NCBI RefSeq assembly: GCF_946477935.1
Contig: NZ_CAMLAC010000002.1
Coordinates: 378-64,377 of the forward strand
From: an uncultured Sphingomonas sp.
GTDB lineage: Bacteria > Pseudomonadota > Alphaproteobacteria > Sphingomonadales > Sphingomonadaceae
DNA: 64,000 bases
Direction: 5' to 3'
The position numbers were made by a program, and so were the translations under genes. The notes below the pieces were generated by a model. The model was not told the DNA's origin. It saw only the letters and a list, made by a program, of their open reading frames with translations, and ran no database searches. Numbering within the stretch: position 1 is the stretch's first letter; every line of letters starts with the position of its first letter. Below are positions 29,051-61,245 of this stretch, one piece after another.

Positions 29051-29478
29051 CTGCTGATCAAACTATAGGCCTTGGCCGGACCCGTCACGTCGATGATGAT
29101 CTCGAATGCGCCCGGCAGCGCAAGAGCGTAACGAACCTCGTACAGGTCGTCACCACAGTGGTGGACGTCGTCAGCTACCAGGCGTTCGCCGTCGGAGGCA
29201 TCGAACGTCAGGCGCACGAAGTCATTGCCTATCGTCGGCCCATCCGCAAACGCGACCGTGAAGCCTCTTTCGGAGGGCCGATAGGTGTAGCGCCGGTGAG
29301 ACGACAACTCGCGGCCGTCTCGCAATCTAAGCGTACCGCATTCCCGGTATGCGAAAATGCCGCCGAGTCCAGGCTCGAAGGTCGCCTTGCCGTGGAGCTG
29401 AGCGCCGGCACCTCTAATCTCTCGATCAAGCTGCCAGGCGCCGCTCAGGCTTCGAAGGAGGTTAGCCCCTTCAAGCAC
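29038..29478 (-). CDS. DUF6314-like protein
   Basis: GAWQLDREI...YRECGTL...YTY...F.DG...HHCGDDLYEVRY...GPAKAYSLISSY. Confidence 0.65.
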   Translation of the reverse strand: MLEGANLLRSLSGAWQLDREIRGAGAQLHGKATFEPGLGGIFAYRECGTLRLRDGRELSSHRRYTYRPSERGFTVAFADGPTIGNDFVRLTFDASDGERLVADDVHHCGDDLYEVRYALALPGAFEIIIDVTGPAKAYSLISSYVR

Positions 29479-34444: not shown

Positions 34445-35023
34445 TCACCGCTGTCGATCCAGGCGCCAATTGGGGCGCGCGAAGTGGCAGCTATAACCCC
34501 GTGGGTGGCGAACGAGGTACTTCTGATGCTCCGGCTCCGCTTCCCAGAAAGGCTCTTCGGGATTGATTTCGGATAAGACTGGCCCTGGCCATAGACCTGA
34601 CGCTTCGATCTCCTCGATCGTCGCCAAGGCAACTTCCATCTGACGCTTGTCGGTATAGAAAATAGCGGAGCGGTAGCTCGGACCGACGTCGCTACCTTGT
34701 TGCTCGTAGGTTGTGGGATCGTGGATCTGAAAGAAGAGCTCCAGCAAAGTTCGATAGCTCAGAAGGGCCGGGTCGAAGACCACTTCTACCGCCTCCGCGT
34801 GCCCATGATGATCATCGTAGGTCGGCGCCGCCATCTCACCGCCGATATATCCGACGCGCGTCGAGATGACCCCCCGCTTGCGACGCAGCAGATCCTCCAA
34901 ACCCCAGAAGCAGCCGCCGGCGAGTATCGCTCGCTCCGTACGGCTCGCCCCATCTCCGGCAACCCTGTCGCTTTCGGATCGCTCACTTACTGATCGATCC
35001 TGATTGTCGCCACCGGATGCCAT
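34445..35023 (-). CDS. msrA: Peptide-methionine (S)-S-oxide reductase, copy 1
   Basis: [45 protein letters not shown]. Confidence 0.93.
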
Positions 35024-36392: not shown

Positions 36393-36447
36393 TATGCGTC
36401 ACGCATATAGACAAGCCCCTACCGCCAAACTATATGCGTCGCGCATA
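36393..36447. promoter_or_regulatory. Two TATGCG-N3-CGCATA palindromes (36393-36407, 36433-36447) between divergent osmC-hydrolase and lysR
   Basis: Exact arms, 40 bp apart. Confidence 0.8.
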
Positions 36448-36517
36448 CTTCTCCGTAACGCTCGATCGACGCCTGATCCGTGGGGAAGTGCGTGACAGAC
36501 ACATGGGCCGAAGGGTG

Positions 36518-37393
36518 ATGGAACTCAATCAGGTCAGCTATTTCATAAACTTGGCTGCGACGCTGAACTTTACCGAGGCAGCTCGGCTGAGTGGCGTATC
36601 GCAGCCAAGCCTGACCCGCGCTATCCGCCGACTAGAAGAGGAACTAGGCGGTGCGCTGATCTATCGGGACGGAAAGAACAGCCGCCTCACCGGACTGGGC
36701 CAGGATGTCGAAGCGGAGTTCCGGCGAATGCTCTTCGCCCTGAAAAGCGTGCGCGATCATTCCGAGAACTGGACGATGGGGCGGCACCGGGTGCTGGACA
36801 TCGCCGTGGCGCCAACCGTCAGTCCCAAAGCGTTTGGGACCTTCTTCGAAGGTGCCCTGGATAAGGTGCCCTCAATCGAGATCAGGCTGCACTCGCTCCA
36901 GTCGAGCGAGGACACGTCGGAAGTGTTATCAGGCAAATATCACGCTTGTATCCTGCCGCGGGAAATCCGCCCGGACCGTAAGCTCGATATCCGTCCTCTC
37001 TTTCGAGAGCGCTTTGTACTCGCCTGCGCGGTCGAGCACCCATTGGCGAACGCAGATATTGTGCGCGGTGAGGACTTGTCGAGATATCCGGTCGTCGATC
37101 GACTCAAATGCGAGTTTCGTGACCAGATAGTGGAACACTTTGCGCGGCGCGACGTGGTCATGCGCCCACGCTTCCGTTCCGAGCGAGAAGACTGGGTTCA
37201 TCGAATCGTCGCCGAAGGTCGCGCGATATGCATCTTGCCGGAGCGATCGGCGGCAGACACTGGTCTCGTAACTCGACCGATCGAAGGTTTCACCTTGGAA
37301 CGAGAAGTGGTGATCGCGACTGTTTCCGGTTCGACGGCTCCGGTCGAGATCCGGAAGGTAGCGCAACTCGCGGCCCGACACGAATGGCAGTGA
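36518..37393 (+). CDS. LysR-family regulator, OxyR-like Cys198
   Basis: MELNQVSYF...NFTEAA...SQPSLTRAIRRLEEELG; effector domain DRLKCEFRDQ with Cys at residue 198. Confidence 0.9.
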   Translation: MELNQVSYFINLAATLNFTEAARLSGVSQPSLTRAIRRLEEELGGALIYRDGKNSRLTGLGQDVEAEFRRMLFALKSVRDHSENWTMGRHRVLDIAVAPTVSPKAFGTFFEGALDKVPSIEIRLHSLQSSEDTSEVLSGKYHACILPREIRPDRKLDIRPLFRERFVLACAVEHPLANADIVRGEDLSRYPVVDRLKCEFRDQIVEHFARRDVVMRPRFRSEREDWVHRIVAEGRAICILPERSAADTGLVTRPIEGFTLEREVVIATVSGSTAPVEIRKVAQLAARHEWQ

Positions 37394-37411
37394 GTCAGAC
37401 AAAGCGTCAGA

Positions 37412-37441
37412 GCTATGGAAACTATGCTCACAGCGTATTGG
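37412..37441 (+). promoter_or_regulatory. 30-bp LysR/OxyR-like box upstream of msrB-msrA-gst
   Basis: GCTATGGAAACTATGCTCACAGCGTATTGG. Confidence 0.7.
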
Positions 37442-37540
37442 ATAAGTGACGTCGCCACTGCGATAGTCGATGTGACGACAGATCAGTCAAGCTGAACTCA
37501 GTGCGCCCGGCCCTCTAAACTTAGTATTGGAGATCGAATC

Positions 37541-37984
37541 ATGAAGTTCGAGAAGACACAGGCGGCTATTGACCGCCTCACCCCAGAGCAACGTCGCATT
37601 ACCCAGGAACACGGCACCGAGCGGGCGTTCACGGGTGAATATAACGACAACAAGGAGCCGGGCATTTACGTCGATGTCGTCTCGGGCGAGCCGCTTTTCG
37701 CGTCGACCGATAAGTTCGAATCTCGCTCCGGCTGGCCGAGTTTCACCAAGCCAATCGTCCCGGCGCATATCAACGAGGTGCGAGACAGCTCGCACGGGAT
37801 GGTCCGGACGGAAGTTCGGTCGGTGCACGGTGACAGCCATCTCGGCCACGTGTTTCCGGACGGTCCGTCCGACCGCGGCGGCCTGCGCTACTGCATCAAC
37901 TCGGCAGCGCTCCGCTTCATCCCGCGCGATGAGATGGAGGCGGAAGGCTACGGCGAATATCTCGACCAGGTAGAGGAGGCTTAA
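37541..37984 (+). CDS. msrB: Peptide-methionine (R)-S-oxide reductase
   Basis: GTERAF, GWPSF, HLGHVF.DGP, RYCINS; single Cys. Confidence 0.95.
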
Positions 37985-37985
37985 C

Positions 37986-38525
37986 ATGCAACAGCGCGCT
38001 GTTCTCGCTGGCGGCTGCTTTTGGGGCATGCAGGATCTGATCCGCAAGAAACCCGGCATCATCTCGACCCGCGTGGGCTATACCGGCGGCGACGTCCCCA
38101 ATGCCACCTATCGCAATCATGGCACCCACGCCGAGGGCATCGAAATCATCTTCGACCCCGAGGTGACGAGCTATCGAAACATCCTGGAATACTTTTTCCA
38201 GATCCACGATCCGACCACGAAGGACCGTCAGGGCAACGATCGCGGTCTCTCCTACCGGTCAGGCATCTACTACGTCGACGAGGAGCAGAAGCGCATCGCC
38301 GAAGATACGATCGCCGACGTGGATGCATCGGGGTTGTGGAACGGCAAGGTCGTCACCGAGGTCAAGCCCGTGGGCGATTTCTGGGAGGCCGAGCCGGAGC
38401 ATCAGGACTATCTCGAGAAGCGTCCGGGTGGCTACACCTGTCACTTCGAGCGAAAGGACTGGGTGCTTCCGAAGCGCCAGGATGCCGGCGGTTCGCAAGC
38501 TGCGGTCGCTGCACGAGCTGAATAG
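37986..38525 (+). CDS. msrA: Peptide-methionine (S)-S-oxide reductase, copy 2
   Basis: [39 protein letters not shown]. Confidence 0.95.
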
Positions 38526-43962: not shown

Positions 43963-44451
43963 TCATGATGCTCGAGAAGGGTGTCGATACTCGGCCGCGC
44001 TGATGAAGCGGTCGAACGCCTCGCACCAGATCACCACCGTGTTAAATGCGGCAACGTCGACGTCGGCCGGGACGGCGATGATGAAGCCATTGAAGGTCTT
44101 CACATCGCCAATGCGGCGCGAATTGTTCTTGATTGCAAGGAAGGCGTCTTTCGTGCCCGCAAATCGCGGAGCGAGGTAAAGCTTGTAATCCGGACCGGGG
44201 GAGAGGCGGCCGATGTGCGCTATCCGTTCGCGCGACACTTTCACGTCTCCTTCGCCCCAGTGGACGAAATCGCTGCCCTCAAGACGGCGCTCGAATCGCC
44301 CGGTGTAGAGCGCTTCCGCTTCGGTCGAAGCAAACGCCGCCGCATCGGGCAGAGGCGGCGCCGTAAGGATCGGCAGGGCGTAGATGCCGGCGGCAAACCC
44401 CAGTGACAGTGTCGCGACATGAGTCGTGGCAAGGATAAGCCAACGGCGCAT
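43963..44451 (-). CDS. DM13 domain protein, exported
   Basis: N-terminal anchor; G.F...[21 protein letters not shown]. Confidence 0.85.
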
Positions 44452-44454
44452 CGA

Positions 44455-44928
44455 TCAAGCCCGTTCCAGGTGCGCCACCAGCTTGTCCGCATCGAGGTGG
44501 AAGTCCGAGAATATGACCGCCCCGCTGGAGTTTATGACGCTGAACCAAGGCGTGCCCCGTGTCCGGTAATCCTCCATGAATGTGGGAAGGCGCGCGCCAT
44601 GCGGAGCAGGATCATGGCCGAAGACGACTGGCAGCTCGTACTTTAACTGGTTCGTCCGCAGCTTCTCGAAGGTGTTTTCGTGCTCGCCCTCGAACACCGT
44701 CTGGATCACCGCAAAGCCGACACCCTTGGTTGCTAGGGCGGCGTGGAGCCGCTGCAACGTGGGGAAGCCGTGCAGGTGGCAACCGCGACACCAGTGCTGA
44801 AACGCAAAGAGGATCTTCGGTCCTGATCCCAGCTGAGAGAGCGTAACTGGAACGTCCAGCTCCTTGCCGTCCCCGCCGATCCATTGCATCACCCGAAGCT
44901 CAGGGGCTGATTGCTCGGGAGCGGCCAC
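44455..44928 (-). CDS. Thioredoxin-fold redoxin (AhpC/TlpA-like)
   Basis: AFQHWCRGCHLHGFP (CxxC), GTPW cis-Pro motif. Confidence 0.8.
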   Translation of the reverse strand: MAAPEQSAPELRVMQWIGGDGKELDVPVTLSQLGSGPKILFAFQHWCRGCHLHGFPTLQRLHAALATKGVGFAVIQTVFEGEHENTFEKLRTNQLKYELPVVFGHDPAPHGARLPTFMEDYRTRGTPWFSVINSSGAVIFSDFHLDADKLVAHLERA

Positions 44929-45109
44929 TGTGTCTCTCCTCCTCAGTTATGCCGTTCGACATCCAGGATCACTTTTTCCAGACCACAGCGGGCGAGCCTG
45001 CCGGGCCTTCGCTGATGTTCTGCCTGCTCTCCGGGATCATGACCGCACCTTAAGCAGCCTTCGATGCCGATCCGGGCGTCGACACTATGAAGTTTGCGCT
45101 TTCTGTTTT

Positions 45110-45139
45110 CCAATAGCGGTAGGCTATAGTTTCAATAGC
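45110..45139 (-). promoter_or_regulatory. 30-bp LysR/OxyR-like box in the divergent redoxin / thioredoxin-fusion intergenic region
   Basis: Minus strand GCTATTGAAACTATAGCCTACCGCTATTGG; plus strand shows ATAG-N7-CTAT-N7-ATAG. Confidence 0.75.
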
Positions 45140-45244
45140 TGCGCTGTAAGTTCACAAGCTCGCGGCACTTTACGTGAGCTCAAATATGCGATGTTGCAGA
45201 AATCGATCAGGTGAATTCCTGTAGCGCTTCACTAAATAGATAGC

Positions 45245-46168
45245 ATGACAAACACTCGAGTTTCACATCGCGAGCATCGTGAGCTCGGCGACGTCGCATG
45301 GCTGCGCGACTACGATCACGCGACGGCGCTCGCGGCCGCTCAGGGCAAGCCCGTGTTGCTGCTATTTCAGGAAGTTCCGGGGTGCGCGACCTGCGTGCAC
45401 TTCGGGCAGGACGTTTTGACGCATCCTTTGATGGTGGAGCTGATCGCCGAGCGGTTCGTGCCGGTGGCGATCTTCAACAATCATCCCGGTGCTGATGCCA
45501 GGATAATGCGGCTCTATGGCGAGCGCTCCTGGAACAACCCGGTCATGCGCTTCCTTCGGTCGGACGGAACCGAGCTTTTGCCCCGTCTGGCGGATCGCTA
45601 CGATCCGCTCGCCCTTCATGAGAAGCTCAGCGCCGCTCTGGAAGCGCTCGGTGGCGACGTGCCGGCCTATTTCCGCCTATTGGGGCGTGATCTGCTCATC
45701 GAGCATGGCTTGAGCGAGGGGGGCGTCTACACGACGCCGTGCTTCTGGTCGGGGGAGACGAGCCTCGCTCAACATCCCGCCGTTATCACAACCGATGCGG
45801 GTTGGGTGGATGGCGAAGAAGCTGTGCAGGTACAGTTTGACCCGCGCGCCGTCAGCCGGGCTGACCTGAACACCTACGCCCATGCAGAGGGCTTCGCATC
45901 GGTGGCGCATGGCATCTTCCGCCTAGACCGCGAACCGCAATTCTACCTGCGCAAGAACGCCGTCCGCCATCTGCCGCTGTCGGCGGCGCAGCGAACTCGG
46001 ATCAACTTGGCCGTACCGTATCGCAATCCGATCCCTGACTTGCTCAGCCCGCAGCAGTCCGCTTGGCTTGCAGATCCGCTACTGCAGCGCGTGAGCGACG
46101 GAGAGACCTACCGCCAAGACATTCGCGATAGCTGGCCGGTGCTAAAGACGCAGCTCGGTTCCGCATGA
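45245..46168 (+). CDS. Thioredoxin-like (VPGCxxC) domain fused to an MsrA-like domain
   Basis: VLLLFQEVPGCATC...SWNNPV (VPGUxxT-type thioredoxin family, Cys form), then PCFWSGE...VITTDAGW..GEEAVQVQFDP resembling MsrA GCFWG.E...V.ST.VGY...EAVEV.FDP. Confidence 0.75.
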   Translation: MTNTRVSHREHRELGDVAWLRDYDHATALAAAQGKPVLLLFQEVPGCATCVHFGQDVLTHPLMVELIAERFVPVAIFNNHPGADARIMRLYGERSWNNPVMRFLRSDGTELLPRLADRYDPLALHEKLSAALEALGGDVPAYFRLLGRDLLIEHGLSEGGVYTTPCFWSGETSLAQHPAVITTDAGWVDGEEAVQVQFDPRAVSRADLNTYAHAEGFASVAHGIFRLDREPQFYLRKNAVRHLPLSAAQRTRINLAVPYRNPIPDLLSPQQSAWLADPLLQRVSDGETYRQDIRDSWPVLKTQLGSA

Positions 46169-46334: not shown

Positions 46335-46364
46335 GCTATTGAAACTATAGTCACAGGGCATTGG
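46335..46364 (+). promoter_or_regulatory. 30-bp LysR/OxyR-like box upstream of the Mo-oxidoreductase operon
   Basis: GCTATTGAAACTATAGTCACAGGGCATTGG. Confidence 0.75.
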
Positions 46365-46569
46365 GAAAGGGCGCTCTTCCGAAGTTATAGTCAACACGTT
46401 GTCGCCACGAATCGTGACGAACGAAGTCATGTCTATACCGACAGAGCTTCAGGCACCTAGGTTTCAGAAAGTTTATCTTCGTTTCGATCCGCATGCGTAA
46501 GTCTTGTGACGCAGGGGAGTAAGCTGAAGACTAGGCCGGGGCTGTCGCGACGAACAAGGGGAGTCCGGC

Positions 46570-47175
46570 ATGGTCACCAGAGGTTTTACCGGTCGCGGAT
46601 CGGGCAGCGACCAGTCCGGCCGGATCCCGCCTGGCCAGCATCTCGTTGAGAATTTTCCGGTTCTGACCGCCGGACCGACCCCGGACCTCGATACCGCGAA
46701 ATGGAATTTCACGGTCAAGATCGGGCCGAAGCCCGTCAAGGTCTGGAACTGGAGCCAGTTCAACGCTCTGCCTCAAACCAGGGTGAAGAAGGACATTCAC
46801 TGCGTCACGTCCTGGTCCAAGCTGGATACGGCATGGGACGGCGTACTCATCGAGGACATCCTCGCAGACGCCGGGCTCGAGCACCCCACCGATTTCGTCC
46901 TCGTGCATTCGTACGACGGTTACTCGACGAACGTGCCGCTGGCGGATTTGCTTTCGGACAAGGCGATGGTCGCGCTCAAATATGCCGGGCAGCCGCTTCC
47001 GCGCGATCATGGCGGCCCAGCGCGCCTGCTCGTGCCGCACCTGTACTTCTGGAAGTCGGCCAAGTGGGTGAAAGCGCTGCAGTTCACGACGCGCGACGAA
47101 GCCGGCTTCTGGGAACTTCGCGGCTATCACATCTACGGCGATCCGTGGCGCGAGCAGCGATACACTCATGACTGA
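46570..47175 (+). CDS. Sulfite-oxidase-like molybdopterin oxidoreductase, no export signal
   Basis: RIPPGQ, DIHCVTSWS (Mo-ligand Cys), DGYSTNVPL, HGGPARLLVPHLYFWKSAKW. Confidence 0.88.
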   Translation: MVTRGFTGRGSGSDQSGRIPPGQHLVENFPVLTAGPTPDLDTAKWNFTVKIGPKPVKVWNWSQFNALPQTRVKKDIHCVTSWSKLDTAWDGVLIEDILADAGLEHPTDFVLVHSYDGYSTNVPLADLLSDKAMVALKYAGQPLPRDHGGPARLLVPHLYFWKSAKWVKALQFTTRDEAGFWELRGYHIYGDPWREQRYTHD

Positions 47176-47914
47176 AGGCGCCGTGCAGGCAGCGCCGTGG
47201 CAGAAGGCCGTGATTGACCAGGTCGTCCAACAGACCCCGGCCATCAAAAGCTTCTTCTTCCGGCTGCGCACGCCTTTCACCCATGTGGCGGGTCAGCACG
47301 TCGATGTGCGCCTGACGGCGCCTAACGGCTACACGGCGATGCGCAGCTATTCGATTGCCTCACCGACCAGCGATGCAGGGGTCCTTGAGCTCGCCATCGA
47401 ACGCTTGCCCGACGGGGAGGTATCCCCCTTCTTTCACGACGTCGCAGCGGTCGGTGACGAGATCGAACTTCGCGGCCCACTCGGCGGGCACTTCCTCTGG
47501 CCGGGGCAGGGAGCCGAGCCGATCCTTCTGATCGGAGCAGGCTCTGGTCTGGTCCCGCTGATGGCCATGATCCGGCAGCGCCGTGAGATGGCACAGACTG
47601 TTCCGACAGCGCTGCTCCTGTCAGCCCGCACGGCGCGCGACGTCCTGTTCTCGGACGAGCTGCTGGCCATCGAACTGGATGATCCCGCCTTCGTGCTGAC
47701 GCTGGCGATCACGCGTGAAGCTCCGAAGCGTGCGACAGACTTCGCGCGGCGGATCGATAGCACGGTCGTCCAGGAGGTGGTCAGTCGGCTTCCCCGCACG
47801 CCTGCCCACGTCTTCGTCTGCGGGTCGAACGGCTTCGTGAACATAGCGGCCGATGGCGCACTGCTCGCCGGTCTGGACGCCGCGGCAATCAAGACCGAGC
47901 GATACGGTGGATAA
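47168..47914 (+). CDS. FNR-like FAD/NAD(P)H oxidoreductase
   Basis: RSYSIAS, GEVS, GPLG.F, IGAGSGLVP, FVCGSNGFV; overlaps the Mo-enzyme stop. Confidence 0.9.
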   Translation: MTEGAVQAAPWQKAVIDQVVQQTPAIKSFFFRLRTPFTHVAGQHVDVRLTAPNGYTAMRSYSIASPTSDAGVLELAIERLPDGEVSPFFHDVAAVGDEIELRGPLGGHFLWPGQGAEPILLIGAGSGLVPLMAMIRQRREMAQTVPTALLLSARTARDVLFSDELLAIELDDPAFVLTLAITREAPKRATDFARRIDSTVVQEVVSRLPRTPAHVFVCGSNGFVNIAADGALLAGLDAAAIKTERYGG

Positions 47915-59126: not shown

Positions 59127-59156
59127 GCTATCGAAACTATAGCTGCCGGTTATTGG
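59127..59156 (+). promoter_or_regulatory. 30-bp LysR/OxyR-like box upstream of dps
   Basis: GCTATCGAAACTATAGCTGCCGGTTATTGG. Confidence 0.75.
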
Positions 59157-59893: not shown

Positions 59894-60760
59894 ATGACCG
59901 CTGGCCACTTGCCCACGCAATTCGTGCAACATGAGGGCGGGGCCGTGGCATTCGACGACACGGGAGGCGCAGGTCCGATCGTTCTCGGCATACCCGGGAT
60001 GGGCGACCTGCGATCCGAGTATCGCCGCTTGAAGCCCATCCTGCAGCAGGCGGGAATGCGGTTTGTCACGATGGACGTCCGCGGCTTCGGAGAAACGTCG
60101 GCACAATGGGACGATTATTCAGCCCGCGCCGTCGGCCGCGACGCTGTGGCCATCATCCGACACCTGGACGCTGGACCGGCGTTCATCTTGGGCAACTCAT
60201 TTGCTGCAGGGTCCGCGCTATGGGCGGCGAAAGAAGCGCCCAGCATGGTCCAGGGAGTTGTCCTGCTGGGCCCGATCGTACGCGATCTTCCACTATCCGC
60301 GGCGCAGAAGCTCGCTCTTACGATCGGGTTCGCCGGCCCTTGGCGCACATGGTTCTGGACCACATATTGGACCAGCCTTTTCACTTCACAACGAGCGCCA
60401 GACCATGCCGAGGTGAAGCGGACGATCGCCCGCAACCTGAACGAGCCCGGTCGAATGGACGCACTGCTCAAGATGCTATCGCTATCGAAAGCAGACACTG
60501 CGGCCATCTTGGACGACAGCGTTGTTCGGGCACTTATAGTGATGGGTACGCGCGACCCGGACTTCTCCGATCCCGGCGCCGAAGCTGAAATGCTCGCTGC
60601 ACAGCTCAATGCGGAGACGATGATGCTAGAGGGCGCCGGTCACTATCCCCACGTCGAGATGGCCGATGTGGTCGGGCATCGGATTACGGCATTCATTAGC
60701 GGTGCTCGCTCCCGGAGGAGAACGAACGGCGCTGCACCTGCCTTCCCGAGGAGACTATAA
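59894..60760 (+). CDS. Alpha/beta hydrolase
   Basis: GIPGMGD, DVRGFGET, GNSFAA, GAGHYPH. Confidence 0.85.
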   Translation: MTAGHLPTQFVQHEGGAVAFDDTGGAGPIVLGIPGMGDLRSEYRRLKPILQQAGMRFVTMDVRGFGETSAQWDDYSARAVGRDAVAIIRHLDAGPAFILGNSFAAGSALWAAKEAPSMVQGVVLLGPIVRDLPLSAAQKLALTIGFAGPWRTWFWTTYWTSLFTSQRAPDHAEVKRTIARNLNEPGRMDALLKMLSLSKADTAAILDDSVVRALIVMGTRDPDFSDPGAEAEMLAAQLNAETMMLEGAGHYPHVEMADVVGHRITAFISGARSRRRTNGAAPAFPRRL

Positions 60761-61245
60761 TGAAAATCGGGTTTGGTGGCGGCTGCCATTGGTGCACGGA
60801 GGGCGTCTTTCAGGCGCTCAAAGGTGTCACCCAGGTGGACCAGGGCTTCCTTCAATCTGAGCCTCCCGCGGACACTTGGGCCGAAGGCGTCATCGTGACT
60901 TTCGATCCGTCCGTTATCAGTCTGGAGACGCTGGCCGAAGTGCATCTTCGAACGCACTCTTCGACCAGAGCACGTTCACCCCGCGGGAAGTATCGCAGCG
61001 CGATCTACACTTTCGAATCTCCACAACGTCCGGGAGCTGAGCGGGCAGTGCGCCGATTCGCGGACGAGGCTTCGAAAGAAATTCACACGCAGGTGATACC
61101 CTTCGTCGGCTTCTTACCGTCGGACGAGCGCTACCAGAACTACTATCGTACCGATCCTACCCGCCCGTTCTGTCGTCGGTACATTGATCCGAAGCTCGAT
61201 TTTATCCGACGCGAGTATGCGGACATTGCGCTGCCCTCGGAGTGA
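60760..61245 (+). CDS. msrA: MsrA-family protein, copy 3, variant active site GCHWC
   Basis: GGGCHWCTEGVF, EGVIVTFDP, YRSAIY, RYQNYY, PFCRRYI; TAATG overlap with the hydrolase. Confidence 0.8.
   Translation: MKIGFGGGCHWCTEGVFQALKGVTQVDQGFLQSEPPADTWAEGVIVTFDPSVISLETLAEVHLRTHSSTRARSPRGKYRSAIYTFESPQRPGAERAVRRFADEASKEIHTQVIPFVGFLPSDERYQNYYRTDPTRPFCRRYIDPKLDFIRREYADIALPSE

Follow-up and report, generated by a model that had tools for sequence, protein, structure and literature searches.

In the MsrA of Neisseria meningitidis, Cys51 is the catalytic residue, Glu94 serves as acid catalyst, and either Tyr82 or Tyr134 donates the proton; the PilB protein of Neisseria unites thioredoxin-like, MsrA, and MsrB domains in a single polypeptide (PMC6210582). 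NCBIfam catalogs another family, NF041383, under the name "VPGUxxT family thioredoxin-like (seleno)protein, type 2," which is the hypothetical selenoprotein OS_HP5 with selenocysteine (Sec) in its VPGU motif (PMC13188914, PMC9312934). In our literature search, the function of this family or its relationship to MsrA was described nowhere, and the family was met only in review tables listing the hypothetical OS_HP5 (PMC13188914, PMC9312934). Here we analyzed a gene of this family in a 64,000-nucleotide stretch of contig NZ_CAMLAC010000002.1 from an uncultured Sphingomonas sp. (the window, to which all coordinates below refer). The gene encodes a fusion protein in which a thioredoxin-like domain with a VPGC motif is joined to a half-domain derived from MsrA.

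Results

Homology of the C-terminal domain to MsrA is confined to the first half of MsrA

A reading of the window made from its sequence alone, without database searches (the sequence-only reading), had suggested a cryptic MsrA-like domain behind the thioredoxin-like domain, on the basis of a peptide that parallels MsrA1 of the window. The peptide, TPCFWSGETSLAQHPAVITTDAGWVDGEEAVQVQFDPRAVSRADL, agrees exactly with residues 164-208 of the fusion protein, and the resemblance proved to be genuine homology, far beyond chance. In a BLASTP search, the fusion protein matched MsrA1 with an E-value of 1e-7 (24% identity over 143 amino acids) and MsrA2 with an E-value of 4e-5. Alignment of the C-terminal domain alignment against an MsrA alignment by hhalign gave a probability of 98.4% with an E-value of 7e-15, placing residues 156-211 onto residues 28-96 of MsrA1 with a 17-column gap at the NPTY loop. 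When the family profile was compared with the PDB, MsrA structures ranked first (bovine 1FVG, E 7.6e-9; Escherichia coli 1FF3, E 3.5e-8), and, in the reverse direction, the NF041383 profile matched the msrA paralogues of the same genome via positions 142-208. The Pfam model PMSR (PF01625) matched residues 165-192 with 18.3 bits, below its cut-off of 23.7, and TIGR00401 (MsrA) scored 12.4 bits versus a cut-off of 108.1. PMSR was matched at E <= 0.01 by 88 of 101 diverse family members, the best at 3.8e-9, so the relationship to MsrA can be found with standard tools.

The weaker matches included heavy-metal-associated (HMA) domains, such as those of CopA, MerP, and ATP7B (1p6t, E 2e-4; Foldseek target-normalized template modelling score, TMt, 0.55-0.65), whose order of elements, strand-helix-strand-strand-helix-strand, is shared, and Met164-x-Cys166 resembles the MxC of the HMA motif MxCxxC. 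These matches might be taken to mean that an HMA-like, ferredoxin-fold metal-binding domain, for the handling of Cu or Hg, for example, is attached to the CxxC domain, and that the likeness to MsrA reflects a shared fold only. We consider this explanation very improbable because the E-values for MsrA are 4-5 orders of magnitude stronger and are backed by the hhalign result. In addition, the position of the second Cys of MxCxxC is occupied by Ser, Glu, or Thr throughout the family, with M/T164-x-C166-F-W-S169 at this site, Met-x-Cys is also found in E. coli and bovine MsrA, and conserved metal genes were absent among the neighbors in the loci examined.

The AlphaFold2 (AF2) model of the full-length protein has a predicted local distance difference test (pLDDT) value of 96.2 and a predicted template modelling score (pTM) of 0.92, so both domains are modelled as one rigid unit; residues 137-307 modelled alone gave a pLDDT of 96.4. 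The C-terminal part consists of a strand (158-163), a helix (167-175), a hairpin (180-188/191-198), a second helix (205-214), a short strand (225-227), and a helical tail. When the isolated C-terminal domain was compared with the PDB by Foldseek, every top match was an MsrA, with a core of 63-76 columns superposed at a root-mean-square deviation of 1.1-1.3 Å and a probability of 1.0, while the query-normalized score (TMq) was only 0.25-0.47. The hhalign, AF2, and Foldseek comparisons thus give an intermediate answer to the proposal of an MsrA fold in this region: the first half, strand-helix-strand-strand-helix, is present, and the second half, and with it the complete alpha/beta fold, is missing.

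Within the shared core, Cys166 lies at the N terminus of helix 1, and Cys166-Phe167-Trp168-x-Gly170-Glu171 is aligned with the MsrA block GCFWGxE, of which the Phe/Trp pair holds the methyl group of the substrate. The loop that contains Tyr82 (NPTY) in MsrA is deleted: 13-17 residues are gone between GWVDG and EEAV, where the AF2 model has a tight hairpin at 188-191. Past residue 211, neither hhalign nor HMMER detected homology to the second half of MsrA, which comprises HDPT...GxQYRS with Tyr134, FxxAExxHQxY, and the recycling Cys residues. Since the Tyr82 loop and the Tyr134 half are missing and the fold is incomplete, the fusion protein holds an MsrA-derived module and is not a member of the MsrA family.

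The gene encodes a Cys form of the VPG(U/C) family

The interval of the gene contains one long reading frame on both strands together, that of the fusion protein. An in-frame TAA at 45233-45235 precedes its start, and therefore an N-terminal extension or signal peptide is not possible; the start codon of a close homologue, P0001 (95% identity), is at the identical position. The assignment of the gene to the VPG(U/C) family is secure: the protein scored 328.1 bits against NF041383 (cut-off, 275), with residues 13-275 spanning positions 1-287 of the 287-position profile, and it was also recovered in a profile search of the whole genome. Many database homologues, and a syntenic gene on a plasmid of Sphingomonas paucimobilis, bear the same family name. 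The Sphingomonas gene encodes the Cys form, not the Sec form. Selenocysteine forms were not found among the family sequences fetched, and in-frame stops are absent from the match in the genome itself; the placement of Sec at the Cys47 position is taken from the NCBIfam name and PMC13188914. A search for other fusions of the VPGU thioredoxin module through the type 1 family, NF041382, found none in 150 Alphaproteobacteria, and in eight Bacteroidota genomes its matches were limited to type 2 genes, through their N-terminal domain. A scan for promoters and terminators found nothing.

The N-terminal domain matched Thioredoxin_7 (PF13899) with 49.6 bits against a cut-off of 27, and Foldseek superposed it on 3f9u, DsbH, DsbD-gamma, and 2lst with TMt values of 0.64-0.73. 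The CxxC motif is located at the N terminus of the first helix of the thioredoxin fold, and, judging from the fold, W96-N97-x-P99 is the likely counterpart of the cis-Pro loop of thioredoxin. Many polar residues of this domain (E43, N78, N79, E93, W96, N97, R102, and R114) are invariant, which hints that the domain may contribute to substrate binding and not to recycling alone.

Two cysteines are conserved family-wide

A homologue search of the whole library yielded 854 clusters at 50% identity (E <= 0.001), and the family is present in at least 551 GTDB species genomes, mainly of Sphingomonadales, Rhizobiales, and Bacteroidota. A family alignment of 101 members (A1) contains only sequences selected beforehand for VPG[CU] and C[FY]W, and the invariance of both cysteines in it is in part a product of this selection. 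In an unfiltered set of 135 representatives of nearly full length, 134 had PGC and 126 had C[FY]WxG[EQ]. Glu171, Gly186, Glu192, and Val194, together with Q249, N254, and Q271 of the tail, are each at least 93% conserved in A1. Cys50 is present in 78% of the members and is replaced by Val, Ser, or Ala elsewhere, while Cys217, at the end of helix 2, occurs in 50% (it is Phe in the Sphingomonas protein) and never without Cys50, a pattern that may be confounded by lineage. Because Cys50 and Cys217 are not shared by all members, the minimal redox set consists of Cys47 (Cys/Sec) and Cys166, the sole family-wide cysteines, and this pair is what an interdomain relay resolving a sulfenate would require. 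Two members, P0208 and P0225, look like natural "mutants" of one or the other site: one has VPGS for VPGC and keeps CFWEGE, and the other keeps CxxC and has SHAEDGE for CFWxGE. They may be pseudogenes, errors, or sub-functionalized forms.

Having lost two catalytic tyrosines along with half of the MsrA fold, the C-terminal domain could be thought to be what is left of an MsrA fusion that has decayed and no longer functions. The pattern of conservation makes this hardly credible: the same truncated architecture recurs in at least two phyla (Pseudomonadota and Bacteroidota) in a family of 854 clusters, the catalytic block and the new tail are under strong purifying selection, and the confidence of the AF2 model is very high.

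Signal or lipoprotein peptides were found in most members from outside the Alphaproteobacteria and in none of the alphaproteobacterial clade to which the Sphingomonas gene belongs, which is cytoplasmic. The occurrence of the family is patchy, and the gene appears to be accessory in the Sphingomonas genome; it was found in none of 400 other sampled Pseudomonadota genomes, including five of the same genus.

The gene recurs beside msrA and msrB in distant lineages

Open reading frames were called and clustered around the gene in 82 loci (80 genome loci and the metagenome contigs L001 and L002) in addition to the window. No neighbor is universal across them. In 18 of the 82 loci, representing about 13 independent lineages, a canonical msrA is found no more than 6 kb from the gene; by our own rough estimate, based on a few msrA copies per ~4-Mb genome, the chance of meeting msrA in a 12-kb interval is about 1%. 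Other recurrent neighbors are a WCxGCH redoxin of 157-200 amino acids (12 loci), msrB (11 loci), and the Mo-oxidoreductase (11 loci). The redoxin homologues recur beside the fusion gene and msrB-msrA in both phyla, as lipoproteins in Bacteroidota and with a DM13 partner in Sphingomonadales. In five Bacteroidota lineages (L024, L030, L032, L076, and L077), msrA is directly adjacent and co-oriented, with gaps of 20-65 bp or, in L076, a 4-bp overlap; in L030, the VPGC gene is followed by msrB, msrA, and the redoxin gene. Signal peptides are present on both MsrA and the fusion protein in L076 and L077, where both proteins are exported.

The adjacency to full-length msrA in Bacteroidota, down to the overlap of 4 bp, could mean that the protein does not reduce sulfoxides itself and is a redox relay or electron donor for a neighboring MsrA/MsrB or another partner, with the half-domain as a docking or relay module whose Cys shuttles the disulfide. 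The exported members, with a DsbD-gamma-like thioredoxin fold suited to accepting electrons from DsbD/CcdA, fit such a role, as do the DipZ gene found within the island described below and the loss of Tyr82 and Tyr134. A relay would, however, have no need to keep Phe167, Trp168, Gly170, Glu171, and Glu192, the substrate-pocket and acid-catalyst residues of MsrA. Moreover, a separate CxxC redoxin already stands beside msrB-msrA in operons such as L030 and L035, and msr genes are missing from the vicinity in the majority of family loci. We therefore regard the relay role as unlikely.

Elsewhere than in the window, the most tightly linked neighbor is a gene for a SirB1-like protein with Transglut_core2 and TPR_9 domains, found in 17 loci of two phyla. 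It lies downstream of the fusion gene in L007-L013, L015, L020-L022, and L038; of the 13 alphaproteobacterial loci with this neighbor, most show a 4-bp overlap between it and the stop of the fusion gene, and the two genes are translationally coupled in many lineages. In four Bacteroidota lineages (L029-L031 and L035), it is upstream on the same strand, directly adjacent in three (L029, L030, and L031). The window locus lacks it, and the one genomic copy is on another contig (L090). Apart from this, EgtB-like and EgtD-like genes, named from sequence only, occur within 6 kb in four Bacteroidota lineages (loci L024-L028, L030, L032, and L075), together with OsmC-hydrolase fusions and msrA.

Promoters of one regulon flank the gene, which sits in an apparently accessory island

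The features of the locus are listed in Table 1. The sequence-only reading had pointed to two oppositely oriented LysR-type boxes bracketing the gene. Exact inverted copies are indeed present: the 16-nucleotide sequence CTATAGTTTCAATAGC occurs at 45124-45139 (+) and 46335-46350 (-), with a chance expectation of 0.01, and the pair is embedded in 34-nucleotide arms that are 76% complementary. The notion that they delimit the fusion gene or control it specifically did not hold. The longer motif CCAATA-N8-CTATAGTTTCnATAGC, with the ATAG-N7-CTAT spacing typical of OxyR and other LysR-type transcriptional regulators (LTTRs), is present in four copies, and in the copy at 45113-45149, 14 of 16 positions fit ATAG-N7-CTAT-N7-ATAG-N7-CTAT. 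A fifth match, at 29053, is inside a coding sequence, has no extension, and is probably due to chance. In the relatives L001, L003, and L005 (82-92% identical), the boxes are placed identically and only the central base varies, while L004 has the fusion gene with the downstream box only. Elsewhere, the box is found upstream of msrB (L012, L013, and L021) or of the Mo-oxidoreductase gene (L016 and L019), not beside the fusion gene. We considered whether the inverted boxes might be the ends of a mobile cassette and rejected this, since the same box precedes msrB and dps in the window and also occurs in other Sphingomonadales with no fusion gene alongside.

Because the boxes are shared with msrB, dps, and the Mo-oxidoreductase genes, the fusion gene is flanked on both sides by promoters of one regulon. 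Of the two boxes, the downstream one is that of the Mo-oxidoreductase operon. Judged by the rule that holds for the remaining three sites, the orientation of the upstream box suits the divergent redoxin-DM13 operon at least as well as the fusion gene, which the box may serve too. The regulator is probably the LysR protein encoded at 36434-37393; its identity as OxyR was rejected because of a weak match (75 bits versus a cut-off of 329), and it is OxyR-like at best.

Table 1. Coordinates of the fusion gene, its parts, and other features of the window
Feature	Position	Strand	Basis or remark
Gene for VPGC thioredoxin-like/MsrA-like fusion protein, 307 aa	45245..46168	+	Open reading frame call, NCBIfam NF041383
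Thioredoxin-like domain (residues 13-136), Thioredoxin_7/DsbD-gamma-like	45281..45652	+	Pfam PF13899, Foldseek
VPGCATC motif (residues 44-50)	45374..45394	+	Cys47, Cys/Sec position; Cys50, optional resolving Cys
Linker helix (residues 137-155) joining both domains, conserved P140 and Y/W142	45653..45709	+	AF2 helix 141-153, conservation
MsrA-derived half-domain (residues 156-227): strand 1, helix 1, strands 2-3, helix 2, short strand 4	45710..45925	+	hhalign, PDB profile, Foldseek
CFWSGE (residues 166-171), counterpart of MsrA GCFWGxE catalytic block	45740..45757	+	Cys166, putative nucleophile
Glu192, aligned with MsrA acid catalyst Glu94 (HAE motif)	45818..45820	+	Kept in 98/101 of A1
Family-specific helical tail (residues 228-307) in place of MsrA second half	45926..46165	+	Near-invariant Q249, N254, Q271
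Upstream operator-like box, CCAATA-N8-CTATAGTTTCAATAGC, ATAG-N7-CTAT-N7-ATAG	45106..45139		Divergent intergenic region
Downstream inverted copy of box	46335..46368		Upstream of Mo-oxidoreductase operon
Related box, 3 mismatches, CCAATA extension kept	37412..37427		Between LysR gene and msrB-msrA2
Related box, 1 mismatch, CCAATA-N8 extension kept	59127..59142		Upstream of dps-like gene
Redoxin, 157 aa, CxxC (FQHWCRGCH), divergent from fusion gene	44455..44928	-	"Redoxin domain-containing protein" in NZ_CP065714
DM13 domain protein, co-operonic with redoxin	43963..44451	-	
Sulfite-oxidase-like Mo oxidoreductase (46570-47175), then FAD/NAD ferredoxin-reductase-like protein (47168-47914)	46570..47914	+	
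Canonical MsrA1	34445..35023	-	Comparison sequence of the sequence-only reading, with its quoted peptides
LysR-type regulator (36434-37393), msrB (37541-37984), msrA2 (37986-38525)	36434..38525	+	

The divergently encoded redoxin gave no match in Pfam or NCBIfam. The region from the OsmC-hydrolase fusion gene to argS, with a DipZ gene in it, is syntenic with a 426-kb plasmid of S. paucimobilis (L089, NZ_CP065714 174115-194728). From this synteny and the absence of the gene from the 400 genomes sampled, the island appears accessory and mobile, and the fusion gene looks to be part of a mobile oxidant-defense island. A resolvase gene and a Tn3-type gene were seen near the L001 locus. DNA 75-77% identical to that of the cytoplasmic Mo-oxidoreductase/reductase pair is present on more than 100 plasmids of Acinetobacter, Klebsiella, Pseudomonas, Aeromonas, and others. 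The window also contains a third bona fide MsrA paralogue, of 161 amino acids, at 60760-61245 (+) (PF01625, 82.7 bits), whose active-site block, GCHWC, is unusual and whose loop in the Tyr82 region is shortened; its gene sits downstream of those for an alpha/beta hydrolase and Dps.

Discussion

The reading best supported by the homology to MsrA, the residues retained, the two cysteines, the confident two-domain model, and the recurrent msr context is that the fusion protein acts in the cytoplasm as a self-recycling, thiol-based reductase of two domains, akin to the enzymes of methionine sulfoxide repair, a proposal which we judge to have about an even chance of being right. In this mechanism, Cys166, situated in the Phe/Trp pocket and aided by Glu192, would attack a methyl sulfoxide, most likely that of methionine-S-sulfoxide, either free or in proteins, and would thereby be converted into a sulfenic acid. 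Cys47, or Sec in other members, would then resolve the sulfenic acid to form an interdomain disulfide, which presupposes that Cys47 and Cys166 can come close to each other. Cys50, where present, would take over the disulfide to give Cys47-Cys50, and cytoplasmic thioredoxin or glutaredoxin would re-reduce it. The thioredoxin-like domain and the helical tail with Q249, N254, and Q271 might stand in for the missing parts of MsrA, its Tyr82 loop and its second half, so that other residues would replace Tyr82 and Tyr134 in a composite active site.

Several points weigh against this proposal. The fusion protein stays below the Pfam and TIGRFAM cut-offs for MsrA, and its TM-score to MsrA structures does not exceed the low range given above. 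Tyr82 is deleted, and the half with Tyr134, Asp129, and the recycling cysteines has no homologue; since the proton in MsrA comes from Tyr82 or Tyr134, chemistry of the MsrA type may be weakened or altered. The complete msrA found beside the gene in several lineages would fit a helper function just as well as that of a reductase. Lastly, the invariant residues of the thioredoxin-like domain far exceed the needs of a mere recycling module.

The last point, together with the tail, bears on the possibility that the protein reduces another oxidized substrate through a remodelled MsrA pocket, such as S- or Se-oxides of small molecules, sulfenic acids or N-chloramines on proteins, or oxidized low-molecular-weight thiols such as ergothioneine. 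In place of the peptide-binding half of MsrA there is a conserved new tail, in which a Gln, an Asn, and another Gln are invariant, and the large number of Arg, Asn, Glu, and Trp residues that are invariant in the thioredoxin-like domain suggests a composite binding site. The EgtB/EgtD genes near the gene in the four Bacteroidota lineages and an island that looks directed at oxidant or chlorine stress point in the same direction. The methyl-binding Phe/Trp pair is, however, the most conserved part of the half-domain, and the strongest recurrent functional neighbor is msrA/msrB and no other pathway, so that we find such a substrate rather improbable. A bolder formulation is that half-MsrA, thioredoxin-like domain, and tail form the composite site of a new class of Cys/Sec reductases whose substrate differs from the peptide methionine-S-sulfoxide of canonical MsrA. 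Candidate substrates of such a class, which we hold to be doubtful, would be S- or Se-oxides that are free or of small molecules, lesions of the chloramine or sulfenate type, or clients that the SirB1-like partner presents.

If the proposal of a self-recycling methionine-sulfoxide-repair reductase is borne out, it would show how far the MsrA scaffold can shrink, losing Tyr82 and Tyr134, when a fused partner completes the active site. A widespread, catalogued family of (seleno)proteins gains a testable role in the repair of oxidized sulfur, for which there are three grounds: the stripped-down MsrA core, the two family-wide cysteines, one of the MsrA type and the other of the thioredoxin type, and the repeated setting in operons with msrA or msrB.

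Comparison with known systems

Compared with other members of NF041383, most of which have signal peptides, the Sphingomonas protein belongs to the cytoplasmic alphaproteobacterial clade. With MsrA (PF01625; E. coli 1FF3, bovine 1FVG, and N. meningitidis 3BQE), it has in common the homologous core, Cys-Phe-Trp-x-Gly-Glu, and the equivalent of Glu94, whereas the Tyr82 loop, the Tyr134 half, and the C-terminal recycling cysteines are found only in MsrA. DsbD gamma, DsbH, and Thioredoxin_7 proteins (1VRS, 2FWH, 2JU5, 3F9U, and 2LST) agree with the N-terminal domain in fold and in the position of CxxC, but the proteins of the DsbD gamma/DsbH type are stand-alone or membrane-linked thiol-disulfide carriers without an MsrA-like domain. 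The likeness to PilB is that, within a single chain, a thioredoxin-fold CxxC domain precedes an Msr-type domain, an order that makes intramolecular recycling the natural logic. The thioredoxin domain of PilB is of the DsbE/TlpA-like type, and that of the fusion protein is of the Thioredoxin_7/DsbD-gamma-like type according to Pfam and Foldseek, which bears out the suggestion of the sequence-only reading that a different thioredoxin family is used. In further contrast to PilB, the fusion protein contains no MsrB (no match to PF01641), its MsrA part is shortened, and it is cytoplasmic. The family itself was already catalogued; a shortened MsrA core whose active site is completed by the DsbD-gamma-like Cys/Sec domain fused to it would be a new twist on the known thioredoxin-Msr fusions.

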